From contig OX597837.1 of assembly GCA_951406725.2 (NCBI GenBank), positions 16,616,001-16,680,000 of the forward strand: DNA of 64,000 bases. The letters run 5' to 3'. The position numbers and the translations under genes were made by a program. Of the stretch, positions 8,498 to 64,000 are shown piece by piece (positions within the stretch are counted from its first letter, which is position 1; each line of letters starts with the position of its first letter). Source of the stretch: Octopus vulgaris (taxonomy: Eukaryota). The notes beneath the pieces are model-generated. The model saw only the letters and a program-made list of their open reading frames with translations, ran no database searches and was not told where the DNA came from.

Positions 8498-9667
8498 ATC
8501 ATCATCATCGTTTAACGTCCGTTTTCCATGCTGGTATGGGTTGGACGGTTCGACCAGGGTCTGGGAAGCCAGGAGGCTGCACCAGGCTCCAGTCTGATCT
8601 GGCAGTGTTTCTACAGCTAGATGCCCCTGTTAACGTCAACCACTCCATGAGTGTAGTGTGTACTTTTTATGTGCCACTGGCACAGGTGCCAGGGGAGGCT
8701 GGCAACAGCCACGATTAGTAGGTGCTTTTTATGTGCCACCAGCAATTTCCATTTGATTTTTATTTTGATGTTGATGTACTTGACTCAATAGGTCTCCTCA
8801 AGCACAGCAGGTCACTCTACAATCAAAGGTAAGCGCAGCAGGCCATCTTGCGATCAAAGGTACTTTGGATGGGCTGGGCCTGCTATGTGAAGCTGGTGCA
8901 GGAAACACCCATGAACTCACGTTATTTGTTGGGTCTTCACAGTTACAGCATACCTCCAGTGGTCTTAGTCTTTCGTCATTGCCTCTGTGAGGCCCAACAT
9001 TCGAAGGTCATGCTTAACCACCTCATCCCATGTCTTCCTGGGTCTACTTCCACCCCAGATTCCTGCAACTGTTTGGGAGTGGCACTTCTTCACACATCTT
9101 TCCTCATCCATCCACAGTACATGACCATACTACCGTAAAGGTCTCTCTTGCATGCCATATCCAATGCTTCTTATGTCCAGCATTTCTCTCAGGGCATTTA
9201 CACTCTGTTGTGTGTGCACACTAACATTACACATCTAGCGGATCATGCTAGCTTCATTTCTTTCTAGCCTATGCATGTCCTCTGCAGTCAATGCCCATGT
9301 TTCACTGCCATGAAGCATGGCAGTTCACACACATGCGTCGTACAATCTACCTTTCACTCTGAGCGAGAGACACTTTGTCACCAGTAGGGGTAGAAGCTTT
9401 CTAAAATTTGTCCAGGCTATTCTTATTCTAGTGGTAACACTCTCTGAGCATCCACCCCCGCTACTAACTTGGTCACCTAGGTAGCGGAAGCTATCATCTA
9501 CTTCTAGTTTCTACCTCTGGAGTGTGATGGAATCTGTTTTCTGAGTATTTGTGGTGTCTGTTGCCCCTATGCACCTGCCGCACATGAAAGCTATTTCTTG
9601 GTTAATTTTCCTTTGATGTTGCTGCACCTCTTATGTGTACATAGCTTACACTGGGTACATCTTATGG
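8498..9667 (-). mobile_element. RTE-clade LINE, 5'-truncated (PHD-containing family)
   Basis: Minus strand encodes part of the Cys/His finger, FRYLGD and LRVKGRLYDACV..MLHGSETW, then the 3' UTR and (GAT)n tail. Confidence 0.88.
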
Positions 9668-9755
<88 letters not shown>

Positions 9756-11363: not shown

Positions 11364-12210
11364 TCTTTATATATAAAAGAAAGGTTGTGTGTCTGTCTAC
11401 TCCGATTTAGATTCCTAACTACTCCCACATTTTGCGATGCAGTTTAACCAAAACCGGGTATCTTATAGTCGTGATTCATATCGAGCCCTTCTGGGTATTA
11501 GCGAGCGTCTACGATGAGTCTACGATTTTACAAATAATTTACCATTATTTTTTTCCATTTTAATGCATATTTTTTTTAATAAAGGGAAGTAACTCTCAAA
11601 CTTCACACCAATATGCGTGCTCATATGCGACGTAATATCACATCAGCAGCATTTCCTCACACCCTCCTTGCACTTGGCGAAGGCAAAATACCAGGGGATG
11701 AAAATGGTAATATTGCCATCGATTCCATATGTACCATTGTTAAGACGCCTTCTGATCTCAGAGATGCAGTGTTCCCAGATCTACAAGCTAATTATCAGAA
11801 TATGGATTGGATTGGCAAAAAGGCTATACTGGCCCCGACGAATAAAACTGTTCACCATATTAATGATGAAATGCTAAAACTCATTCCTGGGGAAGTCTAT
11901 GTATATCAGTCTATTGATACAACTCCTGACCCAGAGGACGTCATCAACTATCCAATAGAGGTACTCAATTCCTTTGAGCACCCCGGACTACCACCACACT
12001 TTCTCAAACTTAAAGTTGGTACCCCTATAATGCACATCAGAAATTTGGTTCCCCCAAAACAATGCAATGGCACACGTTTGATCGTTAAGTCCTTATCTCC
12101 CACAGTAAAATTATATCAATATTTGCCTGAATAATCATCATAATTCAGTGCAATCATTAACAGTACTTTCAAGCAATTCAGCCCCGAGCAACGCTGGGCA
12201 ATTCTGCTAG
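11364..12210 (+). mobile_element. Non-autonomous Helitron with PIF1-helicase fragment
   Basis: 5' TC after A (a|tctttatatataaaa), subterminal GC hairpin gccccgagcaacgctgggc and CTAG|T end; no TSD. Confidence 0.88.
11613..12134 (+). pseudogene. Helitron RepHel PIF1-like helicase fragment
   Basis: LLALGEG, ILAPTN, LNSFEHPGLPPHFLKLKVGTPIM.IRNL..KQCNGTRL motifs. Confidence 0.9.
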
Positions 12211-13769: not shown

Positions 13770-15143
13770 GAAGATGTCCAGCTTTGATTTAAAAACCGCC
13801 ACATCTACTTTGTTCAAGTTCCTCAGACTCTTTGGGAGGATATTAAATAACTGTGGGCCCTTGAAACCCAGGCTGTTGCAGAAGCTGGTCCTGAAGCGTG
13901 ATGGCATTGCTGGGATCTTTGGCACTATGCAATGTCGTCCCATTCTAGCATTGGTGTAGCTTTCAATGCCAAAATTTGGCACAATTCCTTCCAGGATCTT
14001 CTAGACATATATTACTGCATACCTCTTCCGTCTTCTCTCCAGGGAGTAGAGTCTTAGCTGTTTCAACCTTTCCCAGTAGCTGAGCTGTTGCAAAGAGACG
14101 ATCTTCTTTGTGAATCTTCTCTGGGTTGCTTCAAGGTCCGCTGTTAATCTTACACTGGTGGGTGACTATAGCTGTGAGCAGTAATTCAGGCGGCTGAGGA
14201 CGAATGTCCGCCAGAGGACCATCATGGTTTCCTTATCTCTGGTTCTGAATGTTCTTAGGATTCATCAAGGCAGTTGTCTGCACTTTGTCGCCATCCAGGT
14301 AATGTGCACTTGGAAAGAGGTATCATCACTCATGTCGATACCCAGGTCCCTCACAGACTTAGGCTCTGGGATTGAAATTCCCTGTGGACCGGTGTATCCT
14401 GTAAGTTTAATATTCAATTTTGGATGCTGGTAGCGCAGGGCCTGGAATTTTTCAGCATTAAACTGCATATTATTATCCTCAGCCTATCTGTAGATTGAGT
14501 CCAACTCCTGCTGCAGGTGTGCAACATCGCTGGGGTTCTGTATTTTCTGCGAGACTTTCGTATCGTCTGCATAGCTGGCCAGAGTGGCTATCCGGGCATT
14601 TGAGGGCATATCTGAGAGGGTCACTATAAAAAGCAGTGGTCCCAAGACAGTGCCCTGTGGAACACCGCTCACTATTTGCGTGTTCATAGAGGTGGCTCCA
14701 TTAACCACTACTGCCTGACTCCTATTTTTCAGGAAGTCATGTAACCACACTCCAAGTTTTCCAGCTATGCCGAGGTCACATAGTTTGTGGCATATCATAC
14801 TATGATCCACCTTGTCAAAAGCTTTTGCAAAATCAAGGTAGATTACGTCCACATTTGATTTGTTGAGTAACTGCCTCAACACCCAGTAAGAGCTGGGTCA
14901 GGCAGCTCCTACCTGGTCGAAAACCATGCTGGGTATTACTCAGCAAGTTATTTTCCTCAAGGAATGCGATTAGTTTCTTTCTGACTATCCGTTCCATGAC
15001 TTTGCTGATGTGTGAAGTCAGAGAGATAGGCCTATAGTTTTTGGCATCTGCTCTACTTCCCCCTTTATGTATTGGGCATATTATTCCCTCCTTCAGCTTG
15101 CTTGGCAGTTTGCCATTTGCAAGAAATCTCTGGAAAAGAATCT
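13612..15143 (-). mobile_element. CR1-like LINE, 5'-truncated, RT region to 3' end
   Basis: [58 protein letters not shown] and LYSLERRR, with frameshifts. Confidence 0.9.
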
Positions 15144-15270
<127 letters not shown>

Positions 15271-15599
15271 GTATATATATATGTATATATATATATTTGT
15301 GTGGTAAGTAGCTTGCTTACCAGCCACATGGTTCCAGGTTCAGTCCCACTGCATGGCATTTGGGCAAGTGTCTTCTACTATAGCCTCGGGTCAACCAAAG
15401 CCTTCTTAGTGGATTTGGTAGACAGAAACTGAAAGAAGCCCGTCGTATATATGTTTATGTGTATATATATATATGTTTGAAAACTAATTTCTGTGTGTCA
15501 ATGTGTCACATTTAGACCCCCTCTCTCACTATTCAATGACATTCCTACTATTCCTCATGATAGCGTGAGAGTAATAGAAGGCATAGAAACAGTGAGGGT

Positions 15600-22610: not shown

Positions 22611-22710
22611 AGATTAGAGATAATAATTCAATTGAAGTTTAGGAAAATAAGGAAAAAAAACAATTATTTTTCTTTTTGCTGTTTCTTTCAGAAAATCTTT
22701 TATTGTGAAA

Positions 22711-25700
22711 ATGGGGCAGAATTTATCAACACTTCAGATAGTCCCTGTTCAGCCTGCTGGAAGAAGAAGGCATCCCATTTCAAGACAATATCATATTCCA
22801 CATCAAATCCACAGCTTTCTGGTACCAGAAAACAAAGTTTTGCCTAAAGAAATTACTCACCGCAAACTTCGTCCAGTTTCTGTGCAGCTTGCAGCAAAAA
22901 ATTCTGATTTTGCATCAATCTGGGGAAATCCGGTCACGGTACTTGATGAACAAATTCGTTCAAGAATCGAAGGTTTGCAAAAAAGCTCTCCTGAAAATCA
23001 CACTAAAAGTTTGGCAAACAAAACAAGGAATGAAATAATTAACCATTCTCCCTTAGGCGAGCAGGATTGCAGTGGAGAGTCTTTATTAAATGCAAATGAA
23101 ACAAATGATAATCAAAATATTAGTAAAAAAGAAATATTACCAGAAAATAAGAAGAAAAGAGAGACAGAAATTGATAATTTCAAAGAAGGGAATAACTTTC
23201 AATTACTTCAACCAATGAATCCATTTGAAAAATCCAGAACACAAACAAAGAGCTCAGAAATCATGCCATCAGAGCAACAAACGAAATATTTACCTTCAAA
23301 TGAAATTCCAAATCCTTTGCTACATTCAGATTATCAGACCAAGATATCAGTCTTTTATTCTACAGCTAACAATGTGAATAACCTGAAAAACAAGGCACCG
23401 ATTGCTTCTTTGCCACAAAAGTGCAGTTTCCCAGTAGACCAATGTTATTCTCTTACATATGCACAGATGGCTGAAATTCGCCGACAGAAATATTCCAACA
23501 TGCCTACACATGAGAATAATTCTATTTCTTCAAATCTTCAGCCTCAAACAAAACCATTGAGTGTATTAGGTTCTGAAAGTAATAATTGCAACAGGAATCG
23601 TCGAAAGAAACGTCAGGCTCCTCTCCCACCTCCACATGCAAATAAGTTTATTGTTCAACCAGAGAACTCACTGTTTACACCTGACACAGGAACCTGTGAC
23701 AATAGTCAAAATGTCTCTTCAAAGTCTTCATGCCAGGTTATCCCCTTTACAGCTAAAACTAATCATGAAAAGTATACTTTTCAAACACAAAATCTTGGAA
23801 TATCAAATCCATCAATGATATCTCAATTTAGCTGTAAACCCAGTGTAGAAGTTAGATCTGAAACTAACAATTTCCAGTCAACAGAAAAAAAATTAGATCA
23901 AAGCTTTTCTGAGACCAGAATTATTTCTGATAATGTTATTTTAATGAAACAAACACAAAGTAACTTTCATGAAAACTTGACTGACATGGACTCATCTGCT
24001 GATTGCTGTTTAAGTAAAACAAATCAACACACTAACCAACAGAATTGGCAGAAAGAACTTAACTGTAAGGTTTCTAATGAGTTTAAATCCTCACCAGGTT
24101 TGACCAGGAGTGATTCCCACACTAGGTACATCAATTTCAGTTTCTCAAACCAAGAAAATCAACATGAGAATCACAGAAAGTCCCTACAGTCAGATAATGT
24201 TTACAATGTTCAACCATACTCAAGGCCCTATGTTCTGACCCCATCAGGTACCATGCTGACCTCTTGTCCAGTGGTCATAAATGATTCTTCCCAAACCAAT
24301 CATGTTAGTAGAACAAATGCACAGAGTAAGGCTGAACTTCAGTTTTCTGAAAAAACTAAAAAAAAACAATATTTTTCTCCGTGGAACAATAATTGCAATC
24401 TTCCTTCAACCAATCAGAGTTACTCTTCAAATAATCTACAGGGGAATGGTGATTCTTCGACAGTAAGTGAGACTTCAGATAAAACAGACCCTTCAAATTT
24501 AAAACTTTCTACATCAACATGCCATACAACTCCAAAATATTTTTCATCCAAAAGTGACCTGACTAATACAACAAATTCTATGGTGTCTTCTGAACTTGAT
24601 AGTGATACCTATCAAAGATATGGATCATTGGTGTCTTCAGCTTCTTTGGATTGGTCAAAAGGCTTTAGTCCAGCCACTGCAGAAGAAATGAAAATGTCAC
24701 GGACTTCGGAATATACACAAAATGTTTGTTCCGCTATACCTTGCAATCAACAAACAAGTGAGACAAAGACAAACAGGGAGGTAGGTCCAGATCACCACAA
24801 TGTTCTTTCCTTTCCAAAGGTAGATGTTGGTAATAGTGCTCAGAGATATCAAGAAACTAGACAAATGGAATTTCCATTTGCCCCTGAACTGAACCAAACG
24901 TTCACAGAAAGAGATAGTTACATGAGAGAGAATTGGCAGTTGAGAGAACCATTACAAACAGTCAATTCTCTTGTTGAAACTAATGCTATAGAATTCTCAA
25001 AGCCTAAATCAGCAGCTCCACCACCACCTCCTCCTCCTCCCCCTCCACCACCACCACCACCACCACCACCACCACCACCACCGCCACCATCATTAGGCAG
25101 AACATTAAATTACTGTCCCCCTCTTCAAAGAGAATTCATAGACCAAAGTGGGCAAAATTCCCTCCCTAGCAGCATTTCTAAGACAACCATTTCATCCAAC
25201 ATTATGAAAGGACTGGAAACAATCTTCAAAGAAGACATCATAGAAGCTCGGAATAGCTTAAGATCAATGAAAAAGCAAGAGAACTCTGATTCTGTAAAAC
25301 CTATGAAAAAAGATCTTCATGATGCCTTCTATTATGAACTAACACAGACATGTTTGACCAGGCAAAAAAGATGGCAGGAGGAAAACTTTAGCAAATTACC
25401 AAATGGCAAAAACCAAATTTTGGGTAATGTTGTGGATAGAACCAAAAAACATTCGGAAGATTTACTGAATAAAAATGCAGTAGAAAAATTTAATAAATTA
25501 TCTCCAAACAATTCCTTCAACTCAAATTCTTCAGAAAATCTTAAAATCAATGGAGACTTTAAAAATCACATATCTTTAAACCAACCCAAGCAGCCTAATT
25601 TGAAAAGTGAAAATCAGAAAGGAACTGACTCTACAAGATCAACAAATGACTGGACTCCAATGCAAGATCTTGAAGATTCAGAAAATTCTGATACAGAGAG

Positions 25701-27149
25701 TTCTGTGAAAAATTCTCAAAGAAAAAACACAACTGGTTTTAAATATAGTCTTATTCCTGAAAATATAAAATATCTAAATAACACAAAGGAATTTTATAGC
25801 AAAAACTGTCCCAAACCAGAATACGATGTCACAAAGAATTCTTTCACTTGGAAGAATGAACAAAGCTTCATTAAGTCAAATTCAAATAAATCCAAAAATG
25901 GTAAAGAAACCAACCCTAAAACATGTGAAGTATCTGAAAATATTGGTTGGGATAAATCTAGTGGAATCAAAAGTAATTCAAAATATAAAAATGGAAGAGA
26001 CTTTGATTATTTGGAAAAGAAAACTGGTAAAATGTCAGAGCAACATCATTTAGGCAGAGTTAAGCATGAGGGAGAGAAAGGAAAAGAAAATGAAAATGGA
26101 TGTCAAAGAGGATGGAATGTTTGGAAAAAGCAGAAGAAATTTCCCAAAGAATCTTCTGTAAATACGAATGAAAAACAGCAACTTAAGGTGACAGAATCAC
26201 AAATTAACCAAAAGGAAGAAGAAATGGAAAGAGAAAGACTCAATCAAATGGAAATAGAATCTGAATTTCTGAAGAAACGGTCAAATCAGAGATTGGTAGT
26301 GGGTAGAGATTGGAGGAATAGATTAACAAAAATTACTAAACAGTCATTAGAAGGAATGTATGATTTGGAAGAGAAAAGAAAGAACTACACTAATAATGAT
26401 CAAAAAGAAGCTGAGTTCAATGAAGACATTACAAAATGCAATCAGAACACATGGAAAGAGAACGAGAAAGTAAATTGTAAGAATGAAGTGAACTTTAATA
26501 AAACAAGAGCTCAGCTTCAGGAGAACTCAACTTCATCGAATGGGATGGCACAGAATCACACTCAATACAGCGAATCTGTAGTTTCTAACAATGAGGGGCT
26601 AACAAATGATATTCTTTTGAAACCCAAAATTGAAAAACAGAATGCAAGCATTTATTTCCCAAATTCTTTAGCACCAAATTATATCCCAAATCCATTTTTG
26701 GGTATATCATCCAACTATTTTGGTACCTCCTATCTCAATGAATATCTGAAGTTAGTTGGTATTGGGCAACCATTTCTACCAATGAACCTTACATACCATA
26801 ATATTCCTGGATATTTAGGAACTAGTTACAACATGATGCCACAGACAACTGATATATATGCAGGAACAAATTTCACAAATCCTTTGCCATTTTTACCTTC
26901 AGTCTTCAATAATTTCTCAGCTATGAGTGAGTCAAAATCAAAAGATGTACAGAACCCAGTCTACACAAGTGATAGTGATGATGCTGATTCATTGTACCAA
27001 TCTCCAGGAACCTACACAGACCAAATGAGTAACTGGAGTTCAGACAATAGCAAGAGTATCCAAACAGAAGATCTAGACAATTCTGACAGTACGCAGTCTT
27101 CTGATGTTTACATGTTTCAAGCAAATAAAGAACAAGACGAGGATTTTGA
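22711..27149 (+). CDS. Large coding exon of an uncharacterised, largely disordered S/N/K-rich protein with polyproline (possible actin-cytoskeleton scaffold)
   Basis: Uninterrupted ORF of about 1480 codons in a repeat-riddled region; polypyrimidine acceptor ttctttcag ends at 22691; ATG 22711 in good Kozak context (aaaATGg); donor GA|GTAAGT at 27149/27150. Confidence 0.85.
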
Positions 27150-27264
27150 GTAAGTAGATTTAAATTGTTTTAGGAGCGTTGGGTCAAGTGAGGTGGAAAG
27201 TATAGGCGAAAGTAAAAACACTAGACAAAATTTCAGTAGGAGTCAGTCCAAATTAATTTCTTTA

Positions 27265-31114: not shown

Positions 31115-32010
31115 CACTGGAGCAATGAAATGAAGTGTGTATGAAGATAGTATGATTCGCTGGATGTGTAATATCAGTGTGCATACACGACAGAGTGTAG
31201 ACGCCCTGAGAGAAAAGTTGGGCATAAGAAGCATCAAATGTGGTGTGCGAGAGAGGTGACTGTGCTAGTATGGCCATGTGTTATGTATGAATGAAGACAG
31301 CTGCGTGAGGAAGTGCCACTCCCTAACTGAAGAAGGAACCCGTGGAAGAGGTAGACCCAGGAAGGCATGGGATGAGGTGGTGAATCATGACCTTCGAACA
31401 CTGGGTCTCACAGAGGCAATGACAGGAGACCGAGACCTTTGGAGATACACTGTGATTGAGAAGGCACGGCAATTAAAGTAAGATCGCAGTCACGCATGTC
31501 CAGTTCTGTTAAGAATACGCCCGATGCATTGAGCAATATGATATGCTTGAGAAGACCTGTTGAGTCAAGTAAGACCAATATTGTAGCTGGGATCAGTGCC
31601 TCCTGGCTGGCTCCCATGTTGATGGCACGTAAAAAGCACCATTCGAATGTGGTCGTTGCCAGTATCCCATGACTGACTCCCATGCTGGTGCCACGTAAAA
31701 AAGCACCATCCGAATGTGGTCGATGCCAGGTCCACCTGACTGGCTCCCGTGCCAGTGGCACGTAAGAAGCACCAACCGATCGTGACCGATGCCAGTACCC
31801 TCTGACTGGCTCCTGTGGCGGTGGCACGTAAAAAGCAGCCACTACACTCTGGAAGTGGTTGGTGTTAGGAAGGGCATCCAGCTGTAGAAACTTTGCTAGA
31901 CCAGATTGGAGCCTGGTGCAGCCGCTGGCTCTCCAGACTTCAGTCAAACCGTCCAACCCATGGAAAAGGGACGTTAATCGATGATGATGATGATGATGAT
32001 GATGATGATA
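31115..32010 (+). mobile_element. RTE LINE 3' portion
   Basis: GTRGRGRPRKAWDEVV..DL, four UTR repeat units and (GAT)n tail. Confidence 0.88.
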
Positions 32011-33502: not shown

Positions 33503-34859
33503 CTGCAAGAAAACAATATGTATCACAGGATTAATAAAGTTTACATTTTGCTAATATTTTAATTTTTTGTTTATGTGTAACATAATTTTATTTCTGTAAT
33601 TTTTGTTGTTAAAAATCTTAACATTAACCCATTAGCTTTCAGATTACTCTGTCAAATGTAATGCTTATATATATATATTGTTGTGAATTAATCAAATATC
33701 TCATAGCTGTGAAATTTCAATGATGTAATTGTTCAATTCTAGAATAACATTGTTAGGTAGGTGTGAGAGGTCAGATCTGGCCAGTTTGAACATAAAACAA
33801 GTAGAATATTTGGACCAGATATAGCTGGTTGAGGCATGATGGCCACAACACACTGACTGGAAGCAGTGAAAGAGTACAGACTAAATGATCATGAAGTCAA
33901 ATATAGTACACACTTGTGTATGCATTTATATACTAATTAAAGAGGAAAGCAAATTTTATGGATGTAAGTTCAAATTGCAGTCACAACCAAACAGAAGATA
34001 CCTGCCCAAAGTGCCATGCTGTAGGATCAAATATGAAAGCATGTTGCTGCAAAATGAACTTCATAATTATACAGCCATGCCTACAAGACATGATCACATC
34101 ATAAAGAAATTCACTTCCCAATCACATAATTTCAGGTTCAGTCCTACAGCATGGTACCTGGGTCAAGCGTTTTCTACTATAATCCTAGGTCAACCAAATA
34201 TTGGTGACTGAATTTGGTAGATAGAAACTGAAATAAACCTGTGTTAAAACAATGATATGGGAGAGGTGACAGTGATGATGATGATGATGATGATGTTAGA
34301 GCTGTGGACGCTGCAGTTTGGAGTGCAAGCTGTAATTTCAAAAAAGAACCAATATGAAGTAGAGACAACTCTTTAGCCCTGCTCTAGACAATTTCTGTGA
34401 TGCTGGTGACACAATACAATGCCCACACTCCAAAATGGATAGTGATAGGAGAAACCTTGCCGAAGAAGGTAGGAATTGAGTAGTTATGAACAACCTATTT
34501 TGGAAGGCAGTAACTCACAATAAAAACTAATAACAATCCTTTCTACTATAGGCACAAGACATGACATTTTGGGGGACCTTGAGTGCTTGACTGGTACTTA
34601 ATTTATTGATCCTGAATGGATAAAAAGCAAAGTCAACCTTGGCAGAAATTGAACTCAAAACAACGACTGATGAAATGCCACTAAGTGTGTTAATGCTTCT
34701 GTCGGCTTAGTGGTTTAATAAGAACTAATAATAATAGTTTAAAATTATGGCATAAGGCTAGCAGTAATAGGGGCAGGAGTAAGTTGATTACATCGGCACC
34801 AGCATTCAACTGCTACTTTGATCATGAAATGTTCAGTAACATGAGGACCAAAGAACTGA

Positions 34860-37237
34860 AGTATTTCGGATTGCAACAAAATTGTGATGTCATAGGAGAG
34901 AAATGTGTCCACATGGATAATGGCACACTTGCATTTAATAATTCTGCATAGAAAGAGGATTGGAGATTCCATTATGAAAGTCTGCTGAACATGGAGAATG
35001 AATGGGAGGAGGAGAACCTACCAAATGTTGACCCAATTGAGGGACCAGCTACCCAAATTGATAGTACCCTGGTAGATAAAGCAATTAGGGATATGAAGAC
35101 AAGGAAAGCCCCTGGCACATATCTGGTGGTGTGGGTTATGGTCTAGTCACCCGTATTGTAAATCAAATAGTTCATGAAGGAGCCATATCCAATAGTGGTG
35201 TAACAGTACCATAGTCAACTGCTACAAAGGTAAAGGTGATGCTTTAGATAGAAATAACTACAGGGGTATCAAATTACTGGATCAGGTGATGAAGGTCACG
35301 GAGAGGATCATAGCCCAACTAATTAGGGAGAGAGTTAGCCTAGATGAGATGGAGTTTGGTTTTGTGTCAGGGAGAAGCACCACTGTTGCTATATTTCTGG
35401 TATGACAACTGCAGGAAAAATACCCAGCTAAGGATAAACCCCTATACTTGGCTTTTGTTGACTTAGAGAAAGCCTTTGACTGAGTCCCCTGATCTCTTAT
35501 CTGGTGGTAAATGTGGAAACTACAGATAGATGAGTGGTTGGTAGGAGCTGTGCAAGCCCTGTACATGGATGCAGTCAACAAGGTGAGGGTTGGCAATGAG
35601 TAGAGTGAGGAATTCTGGGTAGAAGTAGGGGTTCACCAAGGATCAGACCTCAGCCACTTCTTATTCATCATAGTGATCCAGGCAATAACTGGAATTCAAA
35701 ACAGGCTGCCCCTGAGAACTCCTCTATGCTGATGACCTTGCTCTAATAGCTGAGTCACAACCAGAACTAGAGAAGTTTTAGGTGTGGAATCAAAGCCTAG
35801 AATTGAAGGGCCTTAGAGTCAATCTAGCAAAAACTAAAATCCTAGTAAGTAGGAAGGCAGACAAATCACAAACCCCTTCAGGTAGATGGCCCTCCTCAAT
35901 ATGTAGGAAAGGCATAGGTAGAAACTCTACAAGATGTACCCAGTATAAACTATGGACACATAAGAGGTGCAACAATATCAAAGGAAAGTTAACTGAGAAG
36001 ATAGCTTTTGTGTGTGGCAGATGCACAGGGGCAATAAACACTGAAAATGTACAGAAAACAGATTCCATTACATGCCAGGGAAAGAAACTAGAAGTAAGTG
36101 GCCAAGTCTGTAGTGGGGGTGGATGCTCCAAGAGCATAAAATAAGAATAGCCTAGGCAAAGTTCAAAAAGCTCCTACCTCTGCTGATAACAAAGGGCCTC
36201 CAGCTCAGAGTGAAGGGTAGACTGTATGATGCATGTGTGCAAACAGCCATGCTACATGGCAGTGAAACATGGGCTATGACTGCTGAGGACATGCGTAGGC
36301 TTGAAAGAAATGAAGCTAGTATGATCCACTGGATGTGCTTACACTCTGTGCTTACACGACAGAGTGTAAGCACTTCGAGAGAAAAGTTGCATAAGAAGCA
36401 TCAGATGTAGTGTGTAAGAGAGATGAGTGCACTGGCATGGTCATGTGCTGCATATGGACGAGAATAGCTGTGTGAAGAAGTGTCACTGTAACTGTGGAAG
36501 GAACCTGTGGAAGAGGTAGATCCAGGAAGACATGGGATGAGGTGGTGAAACACTATCTTCAAATGTTGGGCCTCACAGAGGCAATGATAGGAGACCGGGA
36601 CGTTTGGAGATAAGCTGTGATTGAGAAGACCTGGTAAGTAAAGTGAGATTGCAGCCGAGGCTGATGCCAGTGTCACATAACCAGCCCATTTGAAAGTACC
36701 CTTGAATCGCCGGACAACACACTGTGCTTGAGGAGGCCTGTCAAGTTAAGGGAAATCACAGTTGTGGCCAATGCCAGTGCTGACACCCGTGCTGGTGGCA
36801 CATAATGAGCACCATTCAAGCATGAGTCGATGCCAGTGCCACTTGACTGGTTCCCACTTTTGGTGGCATGTAAAAAGCACCATCTGAATGTGGTGGATTC
36901 CATTGTCCCCCAACTGACTCCCATGCTGGTGGATCATAAAAAGCACCTTCCAAACGTGCTTGATGCCAGTACCCCACAACTGGCACCCATTCTGGTGGCA
37001 TGTAAAAAGCAGCATCTGAACATGGTCAATGCCAGTGCCACCTGACAGTCTCCCATGCCAGTGTCACATGAAAAGCACCCACTACACTCTTGGAGTGGTT
37101 GGCATTAGGAAGGGTGTCCAGCTGTAGAAACCTTGCCAGATCAGACTAGAGCCTGATGCAGCCTACTGGCTTGCTAGTCCTCAGTCAAACCATCCAACCC
37201 ATGCCAGCATGGAAAACGATGATGATGATGATGACAA

Positions 37238-44489: not shown

Positions 44490-44797
44490 TCACATTATAG
44501 TTTCCATTAAGACAGATTCCTATCTGACTCACAAGTTCCATATAGTTTCTATTAAACCAGACACCTAGCCAACACACATCTTTCATATTATAACTTCTGT
44601 TAAGACAGACTCACAGCCAACTTGTGACTGATGTATTATAGTTTTCATTAGGACAACCTTTTAGCTGACTCAAAACTTTGTAAGTATTATTGTTTCTATT
44701 AAGACAGACTCCTAGCCTACTCAAGGTTTACATATTATAGTTTCCATGAAGACAGACTCATAACCAACTCATGACCTACATATTATAGTTTCCATTA
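44490..44797. repeat. Minisatellite of about 48 bp (continues at 46081-46170 after an RTE insertion)
   Basis: Unit catattatagtttccattaagacagactc.tagccaactcatgactta, about eight copies in total. Confidence 0.85.
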
Positions 44798-46081
44798 ACC
44801 AAAGTTTTAGTAAGTAAGAAGGTAGACAAATCACAAACCCCTTCAGGTAGATGGCCCTGCATGATCTGTAGAAAAGGTGTAGGTAGAAACTCCATTAGAT
44901 GTACTCTGTGTAAGCTATGTACACATAAAAGGTGCAGCAATAGCAGAGAAAGGTTAACAGGGAATATAGCTTTTGTGTTTGGAAGATGCACAGGTACAAT
45001 AAAAACAGAAAATGTACAGAAAACAGACTCCATCAACTGCTAGTGGGAGAAACTAGAGGTAGTAGATAGCTTCCGTTATCTTGGTGACCAAGTCAGTAGC
45101 AGAGGTGGATGCTCCAAGAGTGTAGCTGTGAGAATAAGAATAGGCTGGGCAAAATTCAGAGAGCTCTTACCTCTACTGGCAACAAAGGGCCTCTTCCCTC
45201 AAAGTGAAAGGCAGATTGTACAATACATGTGTGCAAACAGCTATGCTACACAACAGTGAAACATGGATTGTGACAGCCGAGGACATGTATGGGCTTGAAA
45301 GATATGAAGCTAGTATGCTTCGCTGGATATGCAATGTCAGTGTGCATGTATGACAGAGTGTAAGCATCTTGAGAGAAAAGTTAGGCATAAGCGGCATGAG
45401 ATGTGGTGTGCAAAAGAAACGATTGCACTCATATGGTCATGTGATGCATATGGATGAGGACAGGTGTGTGAAGAAGTGTTGATCTCTAACTGTGGAGGGA
45501 ACTTGTGGTAGAGGTATATACAGGAAGACATGGGATGAGGTGGTGAAACATGATCTTTGAATGTTGGGCCTCACGGAGGCAATGACTAGTGACTGAAACC
45601 TTTGACAATATGCTGTGCTTGAGCAGATCCATCAAGCCAAGTGAAATTGTAGTCGTGGCTGATGCTGGTGTCACGTAACTGGCACCCATACTGGTGGCAC
45701 GTAGAAAGCACCTTTCAAATGTTGGGCCTCACAAAGGCAAGGTGCTAGTGGCTTGTGAAAAGCACCTTTTGAGTGTTGAGTCTCACAGAGGCAATGATGA
45801 ATGACCGAGATCTTTGGCTGTGCTTGAGAAGAAAACCCATCGAGCCAAGTGAAATCACAATCAGAGCAGATTCTAGTGTCATACAAATGGCACCAATGTC
45901 AGTGGCATCTAAGAGCACCCATTACACTCTCAGAGTGGTTGGCATCAGGAAGGGCATCCAGCCATAGAAACCATACCAAATCAGACTGGAGCCTGGTGCA
46001 ACCTTTCAGCTTGCCAGACCTAGTCAAATAGTCCAACCCATGCTAGCATGGGCAATGGATGTTAAATGATGATGATGATGA
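44798..46081 (+). mobile_element. RTE LINE, 5'-truncated, PHD-containing family
   Basis: CMIC..C..C....H..C finger, LEVVDSFRYLGD, SETW, UTR and (GAT)n tail. Confidence 0.9.
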
Positions 46082-47776
46082 TTAAGACAACTTTCTAGCC
46101 AACTCATGACTTACATATTATAGTTTCTATTATGTCAGACTCCGAGCCAACTCATTGCTTACATATCATAAGCAATCTTACTCCATTAAGCTAGACTGCT
46201 ACCAGAAATATGGTTTCTGATTTCTATTAGCAGACTGTATGGTTGTTGGATATTAAAGTTCAGAGAGGGGTACAACAGATCAACAAATGGTTCACTACTT
46301 TCAATTTACTTACATTAACTTCATGCCAAAGTGAACTTTATTTATAGAACTCAACATATATTGGCATCTACCTTTAGTTTTAGACATTTTTTAATGGATG
46401 TTTCTTCAGTTATTTCATTGCTAAAAATTTTAAACCATAGACCAACCAGTTCACATTGAATTTAATGACCTTGTTTGTCCTTTATCTTTTACTTGCTTCA
46501 GTCATTATACTGCAGCCACGAGAAAGCACCACCTTGAAGGGTTTAGATGAACAAATCAATCCCAATACTTATTTTTTAAAAACCAGGTACTTATTCTTAT
46601 GGTCTATTTTCGCTGAAGTTATGGAGACACAAACAAACCAGCACCAGTTGTTAAGCAGTGATAGGGTCAAACACAAACATAAAGACATGCACACATGAAT
46701 ACACACAGACACACACACACGGGTATGTATATATACATTATTTTTAACGCATGTGCCTGTTAGTTTACCATATAAGTGTCTGTATGTACTCATGTGAACT
46801 TCATTACGTATATCTGTTAGTCTGGAAGTGAGCGTTTATGAGTATATATGTGTATGTTTATGGGTATATATGTATATATTTACATCTATGTGTACCTCTG
46901 TACAGTGGTGAATTGGCCAGGTTGCCAGCTTGCCCGATGGCAAGTGGACCCCTGCACCATTAGAATTCATATATGAGAGCCCATGTTAGTATCTAAGGAG
47001 CCAATCCCCTTAAATTTGAGAATTTTTTATTCACTCCTGGAAGAATGCATCATGTCAGCTTGGCTGTGTTTATAGACAGTGAAAAGAATACTTTTAACAA
47101 AAAAAAAAAGAAACATTAAATGATAGCACTGTAGTTGGGAAGGGCTGATGCCCCCTCTGTTGTGGCAAGACCCCTGCTTCTGTCTCTCTGTCATACTCTA
47201 ACCTTTCATCCTCTGATATAAGTTCCCCTCCTCAAATGCCCTGCCCCTCTCATAATTCCTTGTCCTGTGAGTTACTTGGTTATTCTGCCAGTGCTGGTGC
47301 CACATTAAAAGCAGCCAGCCCACATTGTAATGTGGTTGGCATTTGGAAGGGCATCCAGCTGTAAAAATCAGGCCAAAACTAACTTTGCCTGTGCTAGTGT
47401 CACATAAAGTGCACTGAATCCTCTCTGTGGAGTGGTTGGTGTTAGAAAGGATATCCAAGCATAAATCCCTGCCAAAACAGCCACAGAAGCCAAAGGTAGG
47501 TTTTTTACCTTGCCAGCTCCTGTTAGCCATCCTACCCATGGAAGATAGATGTCAAACAATGATGATGATGATATATATAGTTTTATTTCAAGATTTCTTA
47601 CTAATAGAGAAAGAGCCAGTTTCTAACCTAGATCCAAGGCTCCTTCATTGGAATTTCAACATCAACAACAAAGTATATTCGTATGCGTGTATGTATACAT
47701 GCAGTTTTGTATGCTTTGTTTTATGTATATCTTCTCATGCATATATTTGCATATCTAGACATGTGCATATATACTT

Positions 47777-52909: not shown

Positions 52910-54663
52910 TTGATATTGTATGGTTATCTGGTGGGTGATGTGGAAACTGGGGATTGATGAGTGCTTAACAAGAACTGTACAGGCCTTGTAAAGGGATGTT
53001 GTCAGTAAAGTAAGGGCTGGCAATGAGTATAGCGAAGAAATCCGGGTAGATGTAGGGGTTCACCAAGGATCAGCCCCCAGCCCCCTCCTATTCATCATAG
53101 TCCTCCAGACAATAACAGAGGAATTCAAGACAGGCTGCTCCTAGGATCTCCTCTCTGCTGATGACTTTGCTCTCATAGCAGAACCACTACCAGAACTAGA
53201 GAAGAAATTTCAGGTGTGGAAGTAAGGTTTAGAATTGAAGAGCCTTAGAGTCAATGTTGCAAAAAACAAAGTCCTAGTAAGGCAAACACATCACAAACCC
53301 CTTCAGGTAGACAGCCCTGCTCGATCTGTAGAAAAGGTGTAGGTAGAAACTCCTAAGATGTACCCAGTATAAGCTATGGACACATAAGAAGTGCAACAAC
53401 ATCAAAGGAAGGTTAACTGGGAAGATAGCTTTTGTGTGTGGCAGATGCACAGGGGCAATAAACACCACAGATGCTCAGAAAACTGGCTGCATCACATGCC
53501 AGTGAGAGAAACTAGTAGTAGTTGATAGCTTCCACTACCTAGGTGACCAAGTCTGTAGTGGGTGGGGGGATGCTCAGAGAGCATTGCCACTAGAATAAGA
53601 ATAGCCTGGACAAAGTTCAGAGAGCCCTTACCTCTACTGGTGACAAAGGGCCCCTTGCTCAGAGTGAAAGGTAGACTGTACAATGCATGTGTGCAAACTG
53701 CCATGCTACATAGCAGTGAAACATGGGCTGTGACTGTTGAAGACATGCATAGTCTCGAAAGAAATGAAGCTAGTATGATCCACTGGATGTGTAATGTCAG
53801 TATGCACACATGACAGAGTGTAAGCACCCTGAGAGAAATGTTGGACACAAGAAGCATCAGAAGTGGTGTGCATGAGAGACGTCTGCATTTGGATGGTCAT
53901 GTGATGCATTGTGATGAAGAGAGGTGTGTGAAGTGTTGATCTCTAACAGTGGAAGGAACCTGTGGAAGAGGGAGACCCAGGAAAATGAAATGGTGAAGCA
54001 TGACCTTCAAGTGTTGGGCCTCACAGAGGCAATGACAAAAGACTGAGACCTCTGGTGATATGCTGTGATTGAGAAGACCTGGCAAGTAAAGTGACATCAC
54101 AGCCATAGCCTACACCAGTGTCACATAACCAGCCCATTTAAAAAGTACCTTTGAATCATCAGGCGACATTCCATGCTTGAGGAGACCTATTGAGTCAAGT
54201 AAATGCAAATCAAATCAAATCACAATCAAATGGAAATTGTAATTGTGGCCATTATCACTGCTGGTGGCATGCGATAAGAACCATTCATTCATGCGTGGGA
54301 CACTGCCAGATCTGCCTGACTAGTTCCCTGTGCCAGTGGCACATAAAAAGCACCATCCGTATGTGGTCGATGCCAGCCCCCACCCCATCCCGTCCTGACT
54401 TGCTCCTGTGCTGGTGGCACATAAAAAGCACCATCCTAATATGGCTGATGCAAGTGCCACCTGACTGGCTCCCATGCCGGTGGCATGTAAAAAGCACCCG
54501 CTACACTCTCAGAGTAGTTGGCATTAGGAAGAGCATCCAGCTGTAGAAACATTGCCAGATCAGACTGGAGCCTGGTGTGGCCTCCTGGCTTGCAAGTTTC
54601 CAGTAAAACCGTCCAACTCATGCCAGCATGGAAAACAAACATTAAACGATGATGATGACGATG
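52910..54663 (+). mobile_element. RTE LINE, PHD-containing family
   Basis: VGVHQGS, ADD, Cys/His finger at about 53318-53448, RIRIAWTKFRE, LHSSETW, UTR units and (GAT)n tail. Confidence 0.9.
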
Positions 54664-56189: not shown

Positions 56190-57140
56190 ACATGCTTAGG
56201 TACAAGGTAGGAAGAGGCTTCATAAGATGAAAGATCTTTGTTGTGAATGAGAAAAACAGTTTGGGATGGTACATCAAACAGCAGATTGAACCCTTGCTTG
56301 TTGCATGTTTGAAATAGCAACATGATACCCACCAAAAAATGTGACACATTCAAAGACATTTAAGAAACAAGATGAAGAACAAAAATTAAATAATTGGAAA
56401 ATGAAAACAATGCATGGGTAATACTTCAGATAAATTTAAGGTCATTGGCAAGACCAACACTTGGAGGTGGCTAAGGAAAAGTGATCTGAAAGGATGCACT
56501 GAGGCATTGATATGCAACATTCAGGAAGAAGCTCTGAGAACTAATTATACCAAGCTCGAAATAGATAAGAGCAGTGAATTTCCCCTTTGTAGGATGTTTG
56601 ACAACAAAAACGAAACAATACCACATGTTGTGAGTAGGTGTAGCAAATTGGCCCCAAAAGAATACAAAACGTGGCATAATAACATGGCTAAGTTTGTTCA
56701 CTGGAGATTGTGTGTAAAATATAGTCTTGGAAAAACATGGAAATGGTGTAAACATGAGCCAAAAGACATCTCTAAGAATACTGAATATAATATCTTGTGT
56801 GATTTTACAATCCACTGTAACTCTCTAATAGATGCTCAAAGATCAGACATTGCTGTAGTGAATAAAAGGGAAAAGAAAACTAAGATTATAGATATTGTCA
56901 TACCAAGGGATGCACACGAGCTAGAAAAGGGTGAAAAAATGCAAGTTACTAAAAGATAAAATTACAAGACAATGGGCAATGAAGAGAATAACTATCATGA
57001 TGTAGTCACAGGGGTACTAAGAGCACTAACAATGAAGTCTGAGAAATATGTCAGAGAAATTGGAATTGACATGAAGGTAGAGCATGCTCAAAAACTGCTC
57101 TACTCGGGACAGTGAAGATTTTGAGATTGCTATTTGGGAG
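56190..57140 (+). mobile_element. R4/Dong-like LINE C-terminal fragment (zinc knuckle + RLE)
   Basis: ORF 56414-56959: TEALIC.IQEEALRT, CRM....ET..HVVSRC, RSDIAVV and IIDIVIP. Confidence 0.85.
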
Positions 57141-59599: not shown

Positions 59600-60170
59600 T
59601 TTCTGGACATGTTGGTGTATACATATGAAGCAGGGCCGTCTCCTAGAAAGGACTTATAATTTGTCTATTTTCCAACTTACTAGGAATTTGGTTTTTACTA
59701 AATTATCTCTAAGACCCTTAGATTCTAGGCCTTGCTTCCACACTTGAAATTTCTTCCCTGGGTTAGGTAATGATTCAGTTATAAGAACAATGTCATCAGC
59801 ATAGAGGAGCTCCCAGAGGTAGCTAGTCTTGAGTTCCTCTGTAATGGCCAGGAGGATTATGAAAAACAGGAGAAGGCTAAGCACCGATCCTTGATAAACT
59901 CCTACCTGTACACTGAACTCGTTAGTATATTCTTTGCCAACATTCACCTTACTGGCAGCATCCTTGTACATTGCTTATATAGCTCTCACTAACCACCCAT
60001 CTATCCCTAGCTTCCACATTGATTACTAGATAAAGGAGTAACAGAGCCTGTCAACAAAAGTCAAGTACAGAAGTTTATTTTTGGCTAAATACTTCCCCTG
60101 AAGTTGCCTTACCAGGAATATAGCATCAGTTGTATTTCTCTCAGGCACAAAACCAAACTGCAACTCACTT
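59600..60170 (-). mobile_element. RTE LINE RT fragment
   Basis: ORF 59654-59971: VGVYQGSVLS, LLYADD and GLRDNLVKTK. Confidence 0.85.

Positions 60171-63510: not shown

Positions 63511-64000
<490 letters not shown>

Follow-up and report, generated by a model that had tools for sequence, protein, structure and literature searches.

A family of RTE retrotransposons in Octopus vulgaris carries a PHD finger inside its reverse transcriptase (RT), and its copies are almost confined to CpG-poor, methylated gene domains. This location suggests that the finger, placed between RT motifs 6 and 7, likely reads methylated histone lysine and tethers insertion to active chromatin; we give this reading a probability of about 0.5. 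The analysis started from a window of 64,000 nucleotides (contig OX597837.1, positions 16,616,001 to 16,680,000 of the forward strand), and the coordinates below are those of the window.

Copies of the element in the window

The preliminary description of the window had listed four RTE copies with a Cys/His module. All four were found, with the modules where it had put them and in frame with the RT, flanked by the palm strand (N-x-x-KT) and the F-x-YLG hairpin; a fifth copy was missing from its list. The features are as follows.

8498..9668, minus strand: PHD-RTE copy truncated inside the finger (ligands 1-2 missing), with thumb and 3' UTR
31141..31998, plus strand: 3' fragment of the PHD-RTE family
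34828..37234, plus strand: longer decayed PHD-RTE copy, residues 408-1041 and a tandem-repeat 3' UTR
35893..36024, plus strand: PHD finger of the 34828..37234 copy; ligand 1 is S and ligand 4 is Y
44797..45644, plus strand: 5'-truncated PHD-RTE copy with RT palm end, PHD, motif-7 hairpin, thumb and C-terminus
44858..44989, plus strand: C4HC3 PHD finger belonging to a decayed RTE copy; ligand 7 is F and the W of W-x-H is C
45888..46082, plus strand: 3' end of the PHD-RTE family, from blastn to natural copies
52924..54661, plus strand: decayed PHD-RTE copy, residues 651-1043 and 3' UTR
53318..53448, plus strand: PHD finger with a 1-nt frameshift; ligand 4 is Y
59620..60167, minus strand: fifth copy, an RT fragment (residues 601-788) that stops where the PHD begins
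63630..64000, plus strand: 5'-truncated copy of the PHD-less RTE, the control family

The copy at 44797..45644 matches residues 765-1043 of the intact copy L032 with 66-74% identity by tblastn. A stop (45041) and a frameshift (near 45194) interrupt it, and it probably forms one copy with the 3' end at 45888..46082. Its decayed finger scores 16.8 bits for PHD and 21.9 bits for C1_1 in Pfam, both below cut-off. The family covers 9,974 bp of the window in 15 merged segments, and the observed/expected ratio of CpG (CpG o/e) in the window is 0.28.

Some details of the preliminary description have to be revised. The spacing C-x2-C-x10-C-x2-C-x4-H-x2-C-x14-C-x2-C holds for the family, but the eight ligands are complete in none of the window copies. 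The motif GLRVNLAKTK, reported in front of all four modules, is found in the 35.8 kb copy only, and the 44.8 kb copy begins at about 44797. The finger had been placed between the end of the RT and the thumb; F-x-YLG precedes the thumb helices, and the finger is inside the RT. We take F-x-YLG to be RT motif 7, which puts the finger between RT motifs 6 and 7. The PHD-less RTE at 63626 had been cited for its short linker, but this copy is 5'-truncated beside a (TA)n run and its linker is unmeasurable in the window; the short linker is seen in the full-length copy L054.

Fragments of other elements also occur in the window, including a Helitron-like Pif1 helicase fragment (11583-12134, plus strand), what we take to be a CR1-like RT fragment (14484-15339, minus strand) and presumably a fragment of an R4/Dong-like element (56405-56959, plus strand). 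At 22651-27153 (plus strand), an open frame of 1500 aa that includes a poly-proline run is probably a single large host exon; it has no Pfam match, and its residues 760-1020 gave no usable Atlas match.

The intact element and its clade

What does the element look like when it is intact? A search of the 2.8 Gb genome gave 22,882 first-look candidates, and 150 of them, ranked by similarity to the decayed query, were scored. Near-full single ORFs were found in 2 of 20 fetched copies, L031 (1059 aa) and L032 (1045 aa). Both have the order APE endonuclease (Exo_endo_phos), RT (RVT_1), PHD and then thumb, and all eight ligands are present in L032. Upstream of the endonuclease, 0.3-1.1 kb is common to the copies, with no element ORF of at least 250 aa there. 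The 3' ends of the family close with a (GAT)n microsatellite tail. In L032, L044 and L047, as at 36780-37079 of the window, the 3' UTR has a variable array of ~50-bp tandem repeats followed by a conserved 3' end.

Among named relatives of the element, the best match (86% identity) comes from Octopus bimaculoides. Named hosts among the matches are octopus, the catfish Neoarius graeffei and one bacterial MAG record, the last being probably host contamination. One catfish match (P0012), an isoform model of slc22a21, contains almost the entire PHD-RTE ORF, and this isoform annotation is likely a gene-model artefact.

A tree of 62 rows was built by a quick method with the insert removed. The family groups with catfish RTE, Rex3-like and BovB-like RTs, apart from CR1-like and R4-like rows (SH-aLRT 98); these names are labels assumed by us, and Repbase references are outside the tree. 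One clade (30 rows, SH-aLRT 99) unites the 28 PHD rows with two others. These two, P0170 and P0229, had been scored as "no PHD"; both have a long linker, and the finger of P0229 is partly deleted. The sister group is a PHD-less catfish RTE clade (99; joint 96), thinly sampled because searches for PHD-less sisters were saturated by catfish copies. The PHD insert is the mark of one RTE clade. ORF order, RT tree and (GAT)n tails agree with the earlier claim that the finger sits within the RT of a LINE of the RTE type, and RTE is also the name given to the family in the O. bimaculoides VCF. The control family is different: the protein of full-length L054 has 1095 aa, its linker is short and its C-terminus bears a C2H2-like motif. 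Many copies of this family have 1095-aa frames, and three (L054-L056) are ~99% identical; by its C-terminal motif it resembles RTE-2_OV.

Conservation and fold of the finger

The insert is 64 residues long. A search with residues 700-930 of L032 gave 429 proteins, and in the best 120 of these the eight ligands are invariant, which bears out the proposed family consensus; W805 is kept in 118 of them. Because this query contained the finger, the search was repeated with the RT core only. Among 120 matches, the strict motif was found in 107, eight ligands with altered spacing in 7 and a truncated or degenerate finger in 5. The insert was absent in one, a catfish RTE whose linker has 31 residues versus ~95. 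The 10/14 spacing is present in 150 of 169 matches, and C4HC3 is intact in 32 of 47 octopus matches. Two stretches, G-V-G-x-N-S and H-K/R-K/R-C-S, are invariant or near-invariant.

There are also two kinds of variants. Ligand 4 is Y in 9/47 octopus matches from both subfamilies (L001, L010, L011, L019, L020, L026, L031, L043, L046), a count that is partly query bias and in which L019 and L020 look duplicated; it may mark a mutational hotspot or a variant lineage. A sub-lineage of six proteins (P0219, P0221, P0251, P0270, P0274, P0281) has H-x4-C spacing and an altered first loop, possibly with altered ligand specificity.

Is the insert really a PHD finger, and is it maintained? The Pfam model PF00628 matches 41 of 41 diverse inserts, so chance resemblance is excluded; the score is 25.3 bits in L035 and 29.1 bits for the isolated L032 finger, against a cut-off of 24. 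Among rival families, C1_2 matches 36 of the 41 inserts and RING families at most 9. Between octopus subfamilies (seven pairs), dN/dS is 0.03-0.10 in the finger and 0.06-0.09 in the RT. These values support purifying selection on the finger and rule out neutral decay. In the whole-protein AlphaFold2 model (pLDDT 88.9), the finger is located between strand 766-770 and strands 842-858. The isolated finger (pLDDT 75.6) is predicted to have the PHD fold, and its top Foldseek and VIA rows are all PHDs. Pygopus takes ranks 1-5 in Foldseek with a modest E of 0.013, and comes first in VIA with a similarly modest Z of 5.0 (rmsd 4.0 over 53 residues). By sequence, the closest solved relative is again the Pygopus PHD (E 6.5e-7). 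C1 and RING readings were ruled out by the Pfam, Foldseek and VIA comparisons.

Pocket, charge and place in the RT

What might the finger bind? The methyl-lysine cage of Pygopus consists of W366, Y341, V350 and A356 (PMC2726290). Of 183 relatives, 174 fit the pattern, and these positions were mapped onto them via sequence alignment. The W366 position is W or Y in 174/174, the Y341 position is aromatic or His in 160, the V350 position is V, T or I in 171, and the A356 position is S, A or C in 174; all four are kept in 157. The acidic lip of Pygopus (D352, E360) is another matter: the loop has no acid in 168/174 relatives and the E360 position is E in only 9. Mutation of E360 is reported to abolish binding in Pygopus (PMC2726290). 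The mean net charge of the finger is +6.9 (118/120 relatives). Thus, from the alignment, the finger appears to retain a methyl-lysine-type cage while its surface is basic. Such a combination would suit a nucleosome reader that touches DNA, and also a nucleic-acid clamp. On these residues the finger likely reads histone. A complex prediction of the finger with residues 1-30 of unmethylated octopus H3 scored 0.04, in a run without alignment and with methylation outside the model.

Residue 768 of L032 aligns with residue 666 of R2Bm, and by this alignment the finger starts at the 6a site. In R2Bm, residues 672-677 form the 6a loop, which touches target DNA upstream; nicking is inhibited when the loop is deleted (PMC10499050). 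The finger would then face the target DNA, as 6a does.

Genomic location

Where do the copies insert? Flanks of 9.5 kb, 4.5-14 kb from the copy and with repeats masked, were compared for 50 of 150 PHD-RTE copies, 50 of 150 PHD-less RTE copies and 40 random loci; one PHD-less flank on a small contig (C60) was swapped for another copy. The median CpG o/e is 0.28 for the PHD-RTE, 0.78 for the PHD-less RTE and 0.76 for random loci, and the groups show no difference in GC content. CpG o/e is below 0.6 in 42/50, 5/50 and 13/40 flanks, respectively, and the difference is stable at thresholds of 0.4-0.7. The PHD-less RTE is even under-represented in depleted loci relative to random ones (p 0.015).

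The bias does not depend on choosing loci by the family. In 90 loci chosen without it, a 3' end of the family is present in 11/18 depleted loci versus 1/72 others; for the random loci alone, the numbers are 9/13 and 0/27. The 3' ends number ~45 per Mb overall and ~138 per Mb in the depleted domain. When 21 de novo repeat families were compared, only three were enriched in depleted loci and all three map to the PHD-RTE; none of the 18 others (71-93% identity) was enriched there. Young copies, 2-7% from the nearest, have depleted immediate flanks in 16/20 cases, some of these flanks having little unique sequence. Copies of the PHD-RTE are also clustered: with three rows removed from each list (likely duplicates or small contigs), 41/147 lie within 1 Mb of another where 16 are expected (0/2000 simulations), and the number for the PHD-less RTE is 21/147 (p 0.20).

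Host loci give a similar picture. Loci with helicase-domain exons are depleted in 20/22 cases and 8/22 carry a PHD-RTE piece, while 1/20 loci with ligand-gated channel exons is depleted and that locus alone carries a piece (p 0.02 for the difference, with 9/20 channel loci from one cluster). Helicase loci without any piece are depleted in 13/14. These nine loci (L232, L236, L238-L240, L243, L244, L246, L247) belong to a cluster of more than 20 ligand-gated channel genes at G000:C15:56.9-57.4 Mb, each a single open frame of ~400 aa, which to us resembles the known octopus chemotactile receptor cluster.

The depletion is domain-wide. CpG o/e rises mildly, from 0.24 beside copies to 0.37 at a distance of 4-10 kb, so an effect linked to the element may play some part. 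The 3' end runs into (TA)n in 8/11 young copies with a readable 3' end and in 19/87 of a mixed-age set, and target-site duplications are not reliably readable owing to microsatellites. A preference for (TA)n was ruled out as the cause of the bias (8.4 vs 10.7 runs per locus, p 0.43). Overall, there is strong correlative support for biased target choice of the PHD-RTE, and the bias very probably arises at insertion.

Insertions in Octopus bimaculoides

Petrosino et al. (2022) termed an RTE of O. bimaculoides (RTE8BF6ALB220127) potentially active (PMC9115989). At one offset, 118/124 VCF positions of this RTE match L032 (90 reference and 28 alternative bases). The match is collinear across the PHD, whereas the PHD-less RTE requires a new offset for every block. 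By this comparison of bases, the 'active RTE' of O. bimaculoides is the PHD-RTE family. Its 55 PASS non-reference insertions comprise 24 intronic ones, 1 in a terminator and 30 outside annotated genes, and 0/55 are labelled promoter. All 24 host genes of the intronic insertions are methylated in Table S7 of Macchi (4 MP1, 17 MP2, 3 MP3 and 0 MP4), while the unmethylated class MP4 makes up 46% of transcripts. By gene count, and for intronic insertions only, p is 5e-7. This significance is overstated, since the average MP4 gene is shorter; a share of just 10% of intron bases for MP4 would raise p to 0.08. In O. bimaculoides, 5mC is on the bodies of broadly expressed genes and low on transposons (PMC9476566).

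Discussion

How could a finger inside the RT bring about such a location? The best explanation is that it binds a methylated histone lysine, probably aided by a basic surface that touches nucleosomal DNA. The RNP would be tethered to the methyl-lysine nucleosomes of transcribed domains, where target-primed reverse transcription would take place. The endonuclease would then nick close by, often at AT-rich microsatellites. On this mechanism the finger would be the cause of the location bias. Which mark might be read? H3K4me1/2 is a candidate by analogy, as it fits a Pygo-like pocket. K4 methylation chiefly marks promoters and enhancers, and H3K36me would suit gene bodies better. No PASS insertion is labelled promoter and 30/55 are outside annotated genes, which counts against H3K4me reading. 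The basic charge also suits nucleic acid better than the basic H3 tail. It should be noticed that the link between finger and bias comes from one genus and that the control RTE is a distant family rather than a sister clade, so another difference, such as endonuclease, host partner or timing, could cause the bias.

Could the finger then be something other than a histone reader? It might be a basic, zinc-stabilised clamp on target DNA or template RNA, like 6a of R2, with the bias coming from another part of the element or from germ-line accessibility. The net charge, the two conserved basic and glycine-containing stretches, the missing acidic residues of Pygopus and a position equal to that of the DNA-binding loop of R2 all suit this explanation. 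We nevertheless regard it as unlikely. The surface W and the three other cage positions kept in most relatives would be superfluous for a plain clamp, and accessibility alone does not draw RTEs, as the PHD-less RTE of the same genome is depleted in these domains. Nor do (TA)n runs help, since they are common at insertion sites but no commoner in depleted loci. Targeting might also be achieved if the finger docked, within gene bodies, on methylated DNA itself or on a host factor other than histone, from the elongation or maintenance-methylation machinery. The bias follows the DNA-methylation classes closely (24/24), solved PHDs bind VRK1, TET3 and ASXL2 peptides according to structure entry titles, and the missing acids suit a ligand other than the H3 N-terminus. 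Such a partner is hypothetical, however, and 5mC is not singled out, because methylation class also follows constitutive expression; we consider this explanation improbable.

A very different explanation would do without targeting: insertion is random, and either the copies are better retained in gene bodies or they cause methylation and CpG loss around themselves. This may be suspected from the density of copies in the depleted domain, from the lowest CpG o/e beside copies and from the ranking of the first 150 copies by likeness to a decayed query. However, the bias persists in loci picked independently of the family and is also found in young copies and non-reference insertions, families of like divergence are not enriched, and helicase loci free of any piece are depleted too. 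Moreover, octopus transposons are largely unmethylated (PMC9476566). Random insertion is thus very improbable, and the methyl-lysine reader is kept as the main reading.

If this reading is true, the family is a non-LTR element with self-encoded chromatin targeting that loads the housekeeping-gene domains of octopus. The broader scenario would be a widespread LINE clade with a built-in methyl-lysine reader at the DNA-facing 6a site, aiming at broadly expressed methylated genes, with about a hundred thousand octopus copies and still polymorphic; its chance falls a little short of even. PHD fingers in LINEs were previously proposed to guide integration (PMC4120745), and in the PHD-RTE a conserved finger in the RT goes together with a strong preference, measured against controls, for a single chromatin compartment. 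Its near-intact ORFs and the PHD-less sister clade make it amenable to a test of LINE chromatin reading. It also bears on how octopus genomes evolve: an element reported as active in O. bimaculoides falls in introns of methylated, broadly expressed genes, while the unmethylated class, which includes neuronal genes, is not where those intronic insertions fall. The 6a site may tolerate targeting modules grafted on compact RTE enzymes. Our literature search, which covered mainly open-access papers, found no description of a PHD inside the RT of an RTE nor of such a bias, and a search of sequencing runs found no RNA holder of the element on record. Pfam already flags PHD on many proteins of the family, and a Repbase annotation of the finger may exist. 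The Petrosino paper mentions no finger in text or supplement, and no insertion preference in the parts covered (PMC9115989).

Comparison with known systems

The closest likeness in position is the 6a loop of R2Bm (Wilkinson et al. 2023, PMC10499050), which is also inserted between RT motifs 6 and 7, at the aligned site. That loop is a short, base-reading one, called unique to R2 (PMC10499050), whereas the insert of the PHD-RTE is a zinc finger of 64 residues, the element is APE-type, and no fixed target sequence was seen for it. PHDs of LINEs are also found in CR1/L2 ORF1 (Metcalfe and Casane 2014, PMC4120745), where a role in targeting was proposed, and their structural matches include the Pygo entries 2vpb and 3zpv, as for the PHD-RTE. 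These PHDs belong to ORF1 or to the N-terminal end of the RT ORF, ahead of the endonuclease, unlike the finger inside the RT described here. The same authors called the ORF2 structure highly constrained and knew of no functional studies of LINE PHDs (PMC4120745). A PHD inside a retroelement RT is also present in the Chlamys elements (Craig et al. 2021, PMC8557442). They are algal Penelope-like elements of the GIY-YIG class, with the PHD between RT2a and RT3 in five families, and the parts of that paper covered hold no targeting data for them.

The best match in sequence and fold is the Pygopus PHD (Fiedler et al. 2008, PMC2726290), whose W366, Y341, V350 and A356 are kept. Unlike it, the PHD-RTE finger is without D352 and E360, has shorter loops and a basic rather than acidic surface, and has no known partner of the BCL9 type. 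Chromatin-guided integration is familiar from the chromodomain integrases of LTR elements, from HIV integrase with LEDGF and from the PHD of RAG2. The shared principle would be a methyl-lysine reader that guides an enzyme inserting or cutting DNA. Those systems are integrases or recombinases, or they borrow a host reader, whereas the PHD-RTE has the reader fold as part of its own non-LTR polymerase.
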